From NCBI GenBank assembly GCA_964016885.1, contig OZ024743.1, positions 106,268,001-106,332,000 of the forward strand: a stretch of 64,000 nt of DNA, written 5' to 3'. Position 1 is the first letter of the stretch. Each line of letters starts with the position of its first letter. The notes beneath the pieces are model-generated. The model was not told the origin of the DNA. It did not search any database and saw nothing but the letters and a program-made list of their open reading frames with translations. Shown piece after piece: positions 11,290 to 63,858 of this stretch. The position numbers and the translations under genes were made by a program. Source of the DNA: Eledone cirrhosa. Lineage: Eukaryota.

Positions 11290-11354
11290 TATTTTATCTG
11301 ATGAAAGCACACCATAATTTAACTTGGTGTCCCTGAAATATGTATAATGAAATA
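11290..11354 (+). ncRNA. Type I hammerhead ribozyme at PLE 3' end
   Basis: Stem I TATTTTAT/ATGAAATA, CTGATGA (11298-11304), stem II ACACCA/TGGTGT, GAAA (11335-11338), 2-bp stem III, AUA triplet; overlaps AATAAA. Confidence 0.75.
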
Positions 11355-11419
11355 AATATGTTTTAATAAATATAGTTTCCATTTGTTAAAATCTTATATA
11401 TATATATATATATATATGC

Positions 11420-14400
11420 AGCTCTGTAACCCCCGATCCCACCCCCCTCTACCAACAACAAGTCTCCTCCACCATCAATGACCTTATCGCCTCCTCCCTC
11501 CCCCACCGCTTCCCACCTCATCGTCCGCACCCCCCGCACCCCGACCATCTACTTCCTCCCCAAACTCCACAAACCCGACAACCCCGGCCGCCCCATCGTC
11601 TCCGCTTGCAACTGCCCCACCGAACTCATCTCCGCCTTTTTTCGACTCCCTCCTCGCCCACCTTGTCACCACCCTCCCCTCCCACATCTCCGACACCAAC
11701 CACGCCCTGCGCCTTTTCGACTCCTTCACCTACCCACCCGGCCCACAGCCCTTCCTCTTCACCCTAGACGTCAAGTCCCTCTATACAGTCATCCCCCACG
11801 CCGACGGCCTTCGCGCCCTCAAACACTACCTCGACCTTCACCCCTCCCCCATTCCCTCCACCCCCACTCTCCTTCGCCTCGCCGAGCTGGTCCTCACCCT
11901 GAATTGTTTCTCCTTCTCGGGTGAGTTTTACCAACAGGTCACGGGGGTAGCCATGGGTACAAGAATGGGCCCGAACTATGCCAACCTTTATGTTGGCCAT
12001 GTTGAGGCCCAAATCTTTGCCCAGTACACCGGCCCCACGCCGGAACTGTACGGTCGTTACATTGACGACTGTATCGGAGCCACGACCCTCACCCGAGAAC
12101 AGCTCGACTCCTTTCTCTCCTTCTTCTGCTCCTTCAACCCCTCCCTCCACTTCATCACCTCTATCTCCACCACCCACGTCCACTTCTTAGACATCTCCGT
12201 CGCCTTCGACCCCTCCCACCACTCCCTCGTCACCTCCGCCTTCTTCAAACTCACCGACTCCCACTCTTACCTTGACTTCACCTCTTCCCACCCCACCCAC
12301 ACTAAACACTCCATTCCCTACTCCCAACTTCTCAGGATCCGCCGCCTCCGTAGCCGTGATGCTGACTTTGAGTCCCAGGCCCTTTCCCTAGTCAGCCATT
12401 TCATCCGCAGAGGTTACCCCCCTCTCTCGTCCACACCGCTCTAACCGGCGCCCGTGCTGTCCCCCGCTGCACCACCCTCACCCCACGCCACCGCATACCC
12501 ACCCACCGTCTCCCCTTCCCCATCACCTACCACCCCTGCACATTACCCCTCCACCGCACCATCCGCCGCCTCTTCCGACGCCTCCAGTCCGACCTCTCCA
12601 CCTCCCACATCTTCCCAACCCCACCACTCCCCTCCTTCAAACGCGCACGCAATCTCCGCACCCTCCTCGTCCACAGCTCCCTACCGCCCAACCCACGCTC
12701 TGTTCCCCCCCGTTCCTTTCCCTGTTCTAGGCCCCGCTGCAACACCTGTCCCCACATCACCAACACCACCACCTTACATTGTCCCAACGGCCACTCTCTC
12801 TCGGTCCGGCATGCCTTCCGCTGCACCTCCTCCAACCTAGTCTACGGACTTATGTCGGACAGACGGGACGTCGCCTGGCGGACCGAGTCACGGAGCACCT
12901 CCGGGTTATTCGTCTCGGGGGCAGTTCCCCCATCGCCCGCCACTTTGGTGGCCCTGGACATTCCGCACGCCATGTCACAGTCTGTGGCCTACTCCAGTGC
13001 CACGGAACCCCCGCCAATCGCCTTACGGTCGAACAACGAACTATCTTCATCTTACAGACCCACACTCCCCCCGGCCTCAACTCCCCAACCTTATTCCTTT
13101 AGCCTTCGACCGCCTCCCTCCCCCCACACTTATCCCCCACTAACACCACTAACACACCCCTCCTTTTCACCGCCCACCCCACAACTAACAATACTAACAC
13201 CTCCACTCCTCCCCTCATCTGACCACCCTTCCCCAACTAACATACTAACATCCCTTCCCTCCCCTCTTCTCCTCCTCCCCCTCCTTATCACACGCACACA
13301 CCCACCGGCACATATATACACGCGCTCACACTAAACACACACCCTACTACCACCACTAACCCTCACCCCCAGACCTCTCACCTCCACACCTCCATCCCAC
13401 CACCCCGCAACTAACCTCACTAACACCCCCTAACTCCAAGCACACGAACACACGCACCCACTTACCCCACCCACCCCACACGCAACTAACATCACTAACA
13501 CCCCCAACCCCACGCACACGTACCCACACACCCTCGTACACCACCAACTCTACACACCCTACCACCACTAACCCCCACTCACACCTGCATTCAACGCCTC
13601 CCCACCTCCCGTATACTAACACCCACTAACACCTCTTCATCAAACTACACACACACACCAGTACACCACACTCCCTCCATAGAACCACACACACCCTTCT
13701 CTCCCCGCTCCACCCACACCCTCGTCCCACACTCACTCATCCCACTAACACCCCTACTAATACACACACACACACACTCCTCACTCCAACTTTCACACCT
13801 ACACATCTTCGCCCCTTTACCATTCCACCGACTGCTGCTATGCCCTCTGACCACCGCCCAGCACAAACAGACCAGAGCACTCCCACTGCTGACCACTTCC
13901 TGTTGCGCGCGCACCCCACATCTCTCCTCTTCCGACCATCGCTTCATGGAATAACCACACGCAGAAATTGACCAGCCACCAATCCACTAAACATCTTCGG
14001 AATTTACCAACTTTTCAACCATCCTCTTACGTAATCACCTATATAACTCACCCCCACACACCCCCCAAAACATTTTTTTTTCTCCACACGCCACCTACAC
14101 CCACAACACGCTTAAACCCCCCACACACGTGCTTTCCACCACATATCTACACCCTCGGCCTCCTGATTCCTCTCCCCCCACCCCTCTATCCACACACGCA
14201 CAGACACTACGACCCCCCTCCCACACACACCTCTTCCTGACCATGCAACCCCGTTCTTCCCCCAACCCTTACTTTCACATACACACACACACACGCACAC
14301 CTACACACACACACCACCTTCAGCCCTCCCCGCTCGGACACCCTGTATCCCTCTCCCCACTCCACCCGCCACCCCCCTACACACCCCACAACCTTCCACC

Positions 14401-14723
14401 ACCTGTTTAACCCTCTTTTAATTTCAGTTTATTTTGATCATGCCTTTATTTTTAAATTTATCTCATTCCTTGTATTTTGATCATGCTTTATTTTTATTTT
14501 TATCTTTATTTTTTATTTTTTCATTCGCACCGTTTCCTTTCGCTATATGTCTCTCCACCACTCCCCTACACACCCTTTGAACTCTGTTCCCACACACTTC
14601 CCACCCGAGGAAGGGCTTATGCCCGAAACGTCGTCCCCCACCAACACCCAACTCTCGAGAGCGTGAAATTAATAAACATTGTTGTACTGCCTCTCTGTTT
14701 TGTCCCTGTTCAAATTTTTCCAT
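11420..14723 (+). mobile_element. C-rich PLE (Neptune-like by motif): frameshifted RT + GIY-YIG and C/A-rich 3' UTR
   Basis: YFLPKLHKPDNPGRPIVS, LDVKSLYT, GVAMGTRMGPNYANL, YGRYIDD, YVGQTGRRLADRVTEH, TPPGLN; AATAAA at 14671; flanked by (TA)n. Confidence 0.92.
14605..14635 (+). ncRNA. Degenerate minimal hammerhead motif
   Basis: CCGAGGA-A-GGGC-TTAT-GCCC-GAAA-CGTCGTC; U4 is changed to C and stem I does not pair, so it is probably inactive. Confidence 0.55.
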
Positions 14724-62457: not shown

Positions 62458-63588
62458 CTAGTCTACCCCCCCCGGGTCATTATGGGGTTTGAGGGCGAGG
62501 TAAGTCCTACGCAATCTATGTTTACATGCAGTAACCAGTTCATCTTTCTTGTTTAGGAGTTGGTCCGTCGAAAACAGCATTTGTAAAGTTTCCTCCGAGC
62601 ATAAATTGCACGGACGGCGTCCTCCCGTGTAAGAATTGGCTCTGGACAGTAATCTCCAAGTGAGATCATAGGTGATGTTGTTGTCCTTGAGGTCCCATAT
62701 GTGGCCCGAAAGTGTAGTGGCGTGACGCCGGGCCGGGTTTCGGAAGGTATGTCTATGTTGGTATAGCCGGGTCTTGAAGTCACATGCGGTAAGTCCTATA
62801 TAGGCTTTGTTGGAGGTATCCGTCCTCACGTTGCACTGGTAGATCACATTACGGTCTCTGCATCTATTGTCGAGTGGGCAAATAGATCTATCCGGGCAGT
62901 TACACCTCCTGCTCGGTTCTCCACTGCTATTTAGGTTATTTCTGCCATCGGGGTTGAGTTTTTTTGTTGTTAGAGGAGACGATGTTTTGTGCGAAGTTTG
63001 GTGTAGTGCTGTAAGAGAGTTTGATGGTATTTTTGTTAATTATGTTGTGGTAGCGGTGTTGTAATGGGAAGTGTTTTTCAATGAGCCTAAAGAATAGTTT
63101 CCCGATGGGAGTAGTCACCTCTGCGTTGTGGGGAGGATTGAACCATGTTACATTGCGTGAGCGGCGGTGTCTCCTGCTGGTTCCGCTAATGGGAGCTGGA
63201 CAGTAGGATATTTCCTCCCGGAAACCACTCCGCTTGAGGGCCTGGTTGTAATAAGGCGCATGTTCATCGAATATCCGCTCATTAGCTGACAAACGGGATA
63301 TGCGGAGGGAGATGTTTTTGACCAGGTTGTTTGTGATGTTCCTAGGATGGTTTGATCGGCGGTGGATGTAGTGCAGATTGTCATTAGGTTTCCTGTATGG
63401 GTAGTACAGGTCGTTTTCGAGGTCGAGGGTTACGTCCAGGAAGTTTACTCGGGTCAGGGACGTTTGTAGGGTTATTTTAAATCCCCAGTCGCGGAAGAAT
63501 CTGATTAATTGTTTCCGGACCCGATCTGTACTACTGGGGTTGTACCCTTTAAGGGTAAGGAGCCCATCATCACGGTACAATCCACCAC
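62458..63588 (-). pseudogene. PLE RT-thumb/GIY-YIG coding remnant (frameshift near 62940, 5' truncated)
   Basis: ORFs 62936-63580 and 62458-62847 join into the C-terminal half of a PLE protein. Confidence 0.85.
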
Positions 63589-63764
63589 TGTATTTTCTTT
63601 GACCTCATGCCCAGATGTAGCTGGCACTACCAACGCTTGATTGGGTCTACTCCACCCCTCCCCTCTTTCTCCTACTGGCAGGTTTAGCCACCATCTCCCC
63701 TACTAATTTGCAGCCACAGAATTACTACTGATTTTTGACAATCACTTTGACCATATATGGAATT

Positions 63765-63858
63765 ACCCCTTGAGAAGATCGGCTATTTAAATACCAGGAT
63801 AAATTTTCATTTAGTCCAGAATTAGCCGTCGAAAGGGCTTGAGCTCAGCTGTCGGGGT
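63765..63858 (+). ncRNA. Mirror hammerhead copy in the inverted terminal repeat
   Basis: Identical to 61265-61358 except C15.2 changed to G (GAAAGGGCT). Confidence 0.72.

Follow-up and report, generated by a model that had tools for sequence, protein, structure and literature searches.

Hammerhead ribozymes of Penelope-like elements and of protein-free tandem repeats in Eledone cirrhosa, with insertion ends that likely link the two

Penelope-like elements (PLEs) carry type I hammerhead ribozymes in their pseudo-long terminal repeats (pseudo-LTRs) (Cervera and de la Pena 2014, PMC4209133). Metazoan genomes also contain non-LTR retrozymes, for which PLEs were named a strong candidate partner (Cervera and de la Pena 2020, PMC7229834). 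The enzyme that moves animal retrozymes has thus been a matter of proposal since 2020, so far from co-occurrence and homology. With a purified PLE protein, AT-rich DNA was cut on both strands in vitro and both strands were extended; reverse transcription started at two internal RNA sites that delimit a tail, and ribozyme cleavage was protein-assisted but not needed for insertion, ribozyme mutants being unimpaired (PMC11167929). Here we describe the hammerhead motifs in 64,000 nt of the 3.0-Gb assembly of the animal Eledone cirrhosa (contig OZ024743.1; hereafter the window), a stretch rich in (TA)n.

We examined 16 type I hammerhead motifs, which belong to seven PLE families and to three protein-free tandem families; with good confidence, the latter would be retrozymes that a PLE protein copies into (TA)n. 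The kinds of element are already in print (PMC4209133, PMC7229834 and bioRxiv 10.64898/2026.07.22.740005), and we claim no new element class. New here are insertion-end evidence that ties two retrozyme families to PLE machinery, a near-strict two-end rule and two unusual retrozyme variants.

Hammerheads of PLEs and of protein-free repeats

A type I hammerhead layout was found at all 16 listed positions, on the strands given below, and the copies belong to ten families, F1 to F10. A sequence-only reading of the window had counted about 14 motifs from about nine families; its motifs proved real at every site, while the counts had to be raised to 16 positions (the window total may exceed this set) and ten families. 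Its placement of the elements in or next to (TA)n held, with element ends running into such tracts. At the family level, all ten have a conserved core (C3-G8 or U3-A8), a GAAA strand and a NUH cleavage triplet; a C3/A8 subfamily of F10 lacks the core pair of a type I hammerhead, and eight of the 16 window copies deviate too. Judged by eye against other genomic copies of each family, seven window copies look intact (cores at 11298, 27294, 28736, 29250, 36057, 37811 and 61353), one is near intact (core at 50932, unchanged, with mismatches in the stems), and eight are decayed by a changed core base or a broken stem. The features are as follows.

11290..11354, plus strand: minimal F1 hammerhead that looks intact; it belongs to the 3′ pseudo-LTR of a PLE with an endonuclease remnant at 9312-9806.
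14602..14635, plus strand: F2 minimal hammerhead, U4 changed; broken reverse transcriptase (RT)-endonuclease frames at 11482-13100 lie 1.5 kb upstream.
27201..28920, both strands: F3 head-to-head PLE stub, left end short and right end tailed, with intact hammerheads at 27253-27297 (minus) and 28733-28777 (plus).
28951..29816, minus strand: F4 repeat free of open reading frames (ORFs), in which a ~717 bp unit is present about 1.2 times; its hammerhead spans 29133-29254, with the core at 29250 and a ~95-nt branched stem II domain.
35843..36469, both strands: F5 head-to-head PLE stub with hammerheads at 36018-36062 (minus, intact) and 36194-36238 (plus, A9 changed).
37571..38497, plus strand: F6 retrozyme-type insertion of two ~431 bp units, flanked on its left side by an inverted tail arm that is short.
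37805-37847 (intact) and 38237-38278 (decayed), plus strand: F6 hammerheads within this insertion.
44815..44869, plus strand: F7 hammerhead, a decayed copy at the 3′ end of a PLE with frames at 41639-43591.
45691..45726, plus strand: F8 minimal U3-A8 hammerhead, A15.1 changed, in the pseudo-LTR of a PLE family.
50729..51355, both strands: F9 insertion of retrozyme type, with arms head to head and a unit of ~320 bp; the left end is tailed and the right end short.
50892-50936 (minus, near intact) and ~51186-51230 (plus, decayed): F9 U3-A8 hammerheads within this insertion.
56776..56871, minus strand: F10 hammerhead from the subfamily with a C3/A8 mismatch, altered in stem III as well; it lies in the inverted arm of a PLE stub that has an endonuclease remnant at 57481-57977 (plus).
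61173..63873, both strands: F10 young head-to-head PLE insertion with RT-thumb and endonuclease frames at 62461-63604 (minus).
61265-61358 (minus, intact) and 63765-63858 (plus, one change): F10 U3-A8 hammerheads with a long stem II and a 6-bp stem III.

F1, F2, F3, F5, F7, F8 and F10 are pseudo-LTR ribozymes of separate protein-coding PLE families with RT and GIY-YIG endonuclease frames, which agrees, for seven families, with the earlier statement that PLEs carry type I hammerheads in this position. They account for 11 of the 16 window motifs, mostly in truncated copies. The earlier reading is corrected in that most motifs are simply the ends of ordinary PLE copies and do not belong to parasites. 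We chose 20 long loci from the distances between pattern matches. In these, F1, F3, F5, F7, F8 and F10 occur as hammerhead-ORF-hammerhead tandems or as inverted hammerheads around an ORF; some loci (L323 and L332) lack a long frame at this place. Five of these six families have open frames of 527-770 aa, F7 having broken frames only, and pseudo-LTRs in partial tandem or inverted arrangement plus a tail were found in all six (F2 was outside this test). The 770-aa RT and GIY-YIG frame at the F8 locus L328 passes the Pfam cut-offs for RVT_1 and GIY-YIG; the other five long frames gave one weak RVT_1 match and four results without a relevant match, and a D5_N match on L331, spanning 36 residues only, was disregarded. 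Six aligned PLE proteins have common RT aspartates and an endonuclease motif and resemble GIY-YIG/RT protein clusters; no solved structure matched the L328 protein. The F1, F3 and F10 proteins are 43-46% identical among themselves, and those of F5, F8 and F2 are 20-22% identical to F10, so that at least two PLE groups are present. A PLE-frame match lies upstream of 25 of 61 F5 copies, which in 23 of them is the endonuclease frame, at a distance of 394-517 bp (a mirror control gave 0), and an RT-endonuclease remnant lies 1.3-1.5 kb upstream in three of six F2 copies; the PLE assignment of F2 and F7 rests on broken frames.

These ribozymes are like the PLE hammerheads described in PMC4209133 in their pseudo-LTR position, short palindromic helix III, extra base before stem II, U3-A8 variant and opposite-strand pairs 100-700 bp apart, as well as in the number of families per genome and their occurrence mostly in truncated copies. 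F10, with its 54-nt stem II domain and 6-bp helix III, is closer to the fungal and protist PLEs of that study. Asparagine-rich or low-complexity inserts in several PLE frames (L322:2939-4492, L331:3572-5836 and L327:2559-4139, all minus) resemble those of rotifer Penelope elements (PMC3846280).

The window also holds PLE debris. At 35390-35666 lies a short head-to-head stub of a PLE end related to F8; one of its ends is short and the other tailed, and its ribozyme region looks deleted or scrambled. F10-related PLE-end stubs with a partial ribozyme region, at ~26640-26990 and 44958-45098, adjoin small tail-only palindromes around (TA)n; stubs of this type, ~200 bp long, are common among F10 pairs. 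Broken PLE-like frames without a listed ribozyme occur at 2600-3140 (minus), 5441-6385 (plus), 6260-6760 (minus), 18270-19958 (minus; 61-73% identity to the F8 protein), 20928-21660 (plus), 23192-25155 (minus; 58% to the F5 protein), 25178-25870 (plus) and 60502-60681 (plus), and their ends may hold more hammerheads.

F4, F6 and F9 are ORF-free tandem repeats with the anatomy of non-LTR retrozymes (PMC7229834), in agreement with the earlier claim that non-coding hammerhead tandem repeats are present. Each unit contains one type I hammerhead and no coding capacity, the longest ATG-started frames being 68 (F6), 28 (F9) and 37 codons (F4). Units measure 316-324 bp in F9, 420-453 bp in F6 and ~695-717 bp in F4 (with one 517 bp variant), and where a copy exceeds one unit in length, its upstream part continues as the end of a further unit. 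At 33-36% GC the units are as AT-rich as published retrozymes, which they also match in tandem non-coding organization, strong self-pairing of predicted circles and co-existence with PLEs (PMC7229834). Folded as a circle, one natural unit of each family was predicted to be far more stable than its shuffles, with z -8.8 for F6 (30 shuffles), -5.0 for F9 (40) and -7.9 for F4 (12). F9 differs from the published retrozymes by its U3-A8 core, and F4 by its branched stem II and ~700 bp unit, compared with ~170-400 nt in PMC7229834 and 51-972 bp in bioRxiv 10.64898/2026.07.22.740005.

The F4 hammerhead carries two additional hairpins within stem II. A 4-bp pseudoknot between the motif and the sequence before stem I is possible (88.8% paired, no double change). 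Two other views of F4 were dropped: that it lacks the 5′ core, which longer alignments place ~100 nt upstream, and that it is an antisense look-alike inside a PLE frame, no such frame being present at the F4 locus. At one locus, L382, neighbouring F4 units (701 and 717 bp) differ at ~182 positions, compared with a between-array median of 53; the pair is either a mixed-subfamily dimer or an anchor artefact.

One F9 array has six units with at most one base difference, and the F6 array L338 (contig C1, ~19315050-19316770) reads A-B-A-B, neighbours differing by 16-18 bases and alternates by 0-4. These arrays would fit RNA circles of one and two units. Contigs from four sequencing runs, of a kind not known to us, each contain a joint back over 316 bases, and one contig of 347 nt runs round the unit; we did not count such joints as evidence of circles, since tandem DNA would give the same signal. 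No RNA run was listed as containing F9, which is neutral as to expression. F9-like sequence was also present in runs of three other organisms (X4, X5 and X6), and the family may be common to relatives. Retrozyme copies inserted in or beside other retrozyme and PLE copies were seen at L156/L201, L322 and L326, a nesting that arises because all these families target the same (TA)n tracts.

Insertion ends and a proposed route of mobilization

The 3′ ends that enter (TA)n fall into two classes, short ends and ends extended by ~30-95 nt, which we call tailed. Both classes were seen in F1, F3, F5, F6, F8, F9 and F10, and thinly in F7. Among head-to-head PLE insertions with both ends in (TA)n, 116 of 117 classifiable cases combined one short with one tailed arm (F1, 27; F3, 5; F5, 22; F7, 2; F8, 15; F10, 45), the exception being one long-long pair in F8. 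All 26 classifiable head-to-head retrozyme insertions (F9, 15; F6, 11) did the same. Exactly one arm was thus tailed in 142 of 143 classifiable two-armed insertions, and five of the ribozyme-bearing insertions of the window obey the rule. Single-armed insertions also occur (4 of 17 pattern-picked F9 insertions, counted by hand).

Since the PLE tail has been called unique to PLEs (PMC11167929) and F6 and F9 carry the same end pattern, a PLE protein likely mobilizes these two families in trans. The earlier suggestion of a shared (TA)n-targeting machinery accordingly gains matching end signatures for F6 and F9 and finds none in F4, for which no such pair was seen. PLE insertions described before are alike in having an inverted 5′-truncated copy, a one-ended tail, microsatellite targets and two internal RT start sites (PMC3846280, PMC8557442, PMC11167929); the tail there is optional and 30-40 bp long, whereas here it measures ~30-95 nt depending on the family and sits on one arm. 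Head-to-head arms, PLE-type ends and insertion in (TA)n are not among the features of retrozymes in the accessible part of PMC7229834. Li, Clavereau and Pollet reached the same conclusion, that PLE machinery moves retrozymes, from co-occurrence and pseudo-LTR homology, mainly in vertebrates (bioRxiv 10.64898/2026.07.22.740005); our argument comes instead from insertion-end anatomy, without pseudo-LTR homology, and the words 'tail', 'target site' and 'mollus' are absent from the accessible text of that preprint. A search of the open-access literature, with subscription papers and Repbase outside its range, found neither insertion-end evidence linking retrozymes to PLE machinery nor any account of hammerhead families like those of octopus or of retrozymes with PLE tails.

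The following scheme would account for these ends. The PLE endonuclease would cut a (TA)n tract on both strands, each 3′ end so released would prime reverse transcription at one of two fixed internal sites downstream of the ribozyme, and the two cDNAs would be joined head to head. Retrozyme transcripts would self-cleave, mostly as dimers, and be ligated to circles; RT running round a circle, or along an uncleaved multimer, would give tandem arrays with random 5′ ends. Because the F6 and F9 arrays run through the cleavage site, the template would have been a circle or an uncleaved multimer. A bolder version holds that every PLE insertion consists of two priming events, one per cut (TA)n strand and each at its own RNA site, and that ribozyme-made circles keep both sites and so hijack the enzyme; we see the case for and against this as evenly balanced. 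If it is true, the short-plus-tailed rule would prove, from the genome itself, that retrozyme circles are copied by a PLE protein rolling round them. The near-strict rule in any case constrains PLE integration and favours two-ended priming, and the two RNA start sites mapped on F6 and F9 make a direct test possible in the published in vitro PLE assay.

Covariation, folding and rival explanations

Covariation was counted for F9 and F4, the other eight families being read by eye, and the stem covariation looked for among genomic copies was found in both. In F9 (28 distinct copies), 91.9% of cells were paired, with double changes at 6 of 13 pairs distributed over all three stems, compared with 21-44% paired when partners were slid. 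In F4 (20 distinct copies), 94.5% of cells were paired, with double changes at 8 of 39 pairs and a slid-partner control of 32-47%; the three pairs counted in stem III showed no variation. The percentage paired, the number of cells with double changes and the covariation score exceeded 500 of 500 shuffles.

Folding energy by itself does not set the motifs apart: of the 11 that were folded, two alone, 50932 (z -7.6) and 44819 (z -2.2), were more stable than their shuffles. The active fold was predicted to be the minimum-energy structure for a U3-A8 copy of F10, and to lie 4.2 kcal/mol off the minimum for the C3/A8 subfamily of F10 and 5.4 kcal/mol off for F9. An alternative fold as an off switch for F10 is unsupported for the U3-A8 copy, being predicted for the C3/A8 subfamily only. 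The C3/A8 mismatch, which would be expected to cripple hammerhead catalysis, is present in 990 of 3,847 F10 matches (about a quarter), often on both arms. The abundance of this subfamily implies that a parent whose core pair was broken could nevertheless multiply, and fits the notion that ribozyme cleavage is dispensable for PLE spread.

These last results bear on one rival explanation, that the hammerheads have lost cleavage and are retained only for their structure or because they travel with PLE ends. The mismatched F10 copies, the off-minimum active folds of that subfamily and of F9, and the finding that ribozyme mutants did not impair insertion in vitro (PMC11167929) all speak for it. We regard it as unlikely, as three families keep a compensated U3-A8 pair, the U3-A8 copy of F10 has its active fold at the energy minimum, and stems covary across subfamilies around a fixed core (the core was, however, required by the collecting patterns).

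Two further explanations concern the tandem repeats. F4, F6 and F9 might be solo pseudo-LTR stubs of unsampled autonomous PLE families that expanded in place by unequal crossover, with no independent RNA circles, a route proposed in bioRxiv 10.64898/2026.07.22.740005. A missing upstream ORF is a weak objection in itself, as F1, a true PLE family, has one within 1.6 kb in only 4 of 83 copies, and the loci read comprised ~30 pattern-picked ones per family plus sampled and array loci. Other features make this origin quite improbable: in every copy longer than one unit, what lies upstream of the F4, F6 or F9 unit is the end of the same unit; arrays have fixed 3′ ends and random 5′ ends; L336 and L337, of eight F9/F6 loci inspected for a possible ORF between ribozymes or arrays, have no long frame between same-strand motifs (longest, 227 aa); and whole units are strongly self-paired as predicted circles. 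Alternatively, the repeats could be retrozymes moved by another class of retroelement, a long interspersed nuclear element, with (TA)n a common target merely through its abundance. Three points speak for it: a (TA)n tract lies within 200 bases of a random position 17% of the time, the two-end pattern is absent from F4, and the units showed no homology to pseudo-LTRs. The end pattern nevertheless makes this highly improbable, as all 26 short-plus-tailed F6/F9 pairs (binomial p 1.5e-8 versus one half) match the co-resident PLE families, their tail is of the kind described as PLE-specific (PMC11167929), and no poly(A) was noticed at the insertion ends listed.

Our preferred reading, that PLE protein copies retrozymes into (TA)n, has to be weighed against several points. 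Cleavage, expression and circles are postulated, and eight of the 16 window copies are decayed. F4 has one end class, and its sole inverted pair (L339) is symmetric, with arms that end alike. No similarity of F4, F6 or F9 units to pseudo-LTRs was detectable in 17 long PLE loci. The units of another F9 array differ by 3-7 bases, which does not call for a circle and fits a linear multimer or later decay equally well. As for the end counts, the classes were drawn after the end distributions had been viewed, seven pairs with an unclassifiable end (five PLE, two retrozyme) were set aside, most loci were the first exact matches on contig C1, which favours young copies, and the F10 pairs include many short stubs from related subfamilies. 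As for covariation, the number of pairs with double changes fails to beat shuffles (356/500 and 67/500), and the copies compared are related, a kinship that inflates such tests.

Abundance in the genome and other repeats

We collected copies by exact sequence patterns, with reversed patterns as controls. The genome contains 29,283 exact matches for F1, 14,247 for F5, 10,714 for F8, 10,274 for F6, 4,157 for F9, 3,847 for F10, 2,039 for F7, 1,958 for F4 and 698 for F3. The total of 77,217 for these nine families (all but F2) is a lower bound, and the reversed patterns gave no match except one for F9. By other methods, far fewer, ~2,000-9,000 PLE hammerheads per genome, were found in PMC4209133.

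A structure descriptor passed 6 of the 16 window sites, compared with 0.5 matches in 20 block-wise dinucleotide shuffles, so that motif frequency exceeds the shuffled expectation. An earlier version of the descriptor gave six window matches (five listed sites and 31545) compared with 0.6-0.7 in 100 shuffles; we treated 31545, which is outside the listed sites and fails the tighter descriptor, as a chance match. The Rfam hammerhead models gave no match at gathering score in the window or in nine loci of young copies, and no hammerhead was present among the 150 listed of 270 weak Rfam matches in the window. This failure shows a poor fit to the curated models, not the absence of a hammerhead fold.

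We estimated density from 780 kb in all, sampled on 23 large contigs as 78 segments of 10 kb each, placed at round coordinates. The descriptor gave 65 matches with a short stem II, compared with 2.0 in shuffled sequence, and 92 with a long stem II, compared with 5.7 (three shuffles each). The sampled density of ~80-110 motifs per Mb corresponds roughly to 240,000-330,000 motifs in the whole genome, provided that the sample is representative. In the bolder version of our scheme, the host genome would hold ~240,000-330,000 intact-looking hammerheads, including large branched stem II variants that standard models miss. Natural hammerhead variants undetected by Rfam, among them U3-A8 cores, branched stem II domains and the spreading C3/A8 subfamily, form a very large and so far unannotated reservoir in this genome. 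For axolotl, 126,247 motifs were reported (PMC7229834) in a genome of 28.21 Gb (bioRxiv 10.64898/2026.07.22.740005), a comparison that is rough, as methods differ, and on which we base no claim of a record; for giant squid, 235 Hammerhead_1 matches were listed (PMC6962438). The window is no hammerhead hotspot, a possibility we rejected because its excess of 5.5 matches per 64 kb is at or below those of the sample (7.1) and of 200 kb of neighbouring DNA (7.8).

The 65 short-stem-II matches of the sample group into 23 clusters. At least 15 hammerhead clusters of the sample are outside the ten families of the window (for example L014, L008, L003, L018, L020 and L090). L018 contains another U3-A8 motif, and single-member clusters may include chance matches.

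Other repeats are present in the window. Two copies of a young 352-nt repeat, at 16129-16480 and 54647-54998, lie in opposite orientation and are 95% alike. A dispersed repeat of the short interspersed nuclear element (SINE) type, which we presume to resemble an octopus SINE, occurs at 9229-9418, 26979-27168, 46079-46268, 47640-47829, 48527-48716 and 59503-59607.

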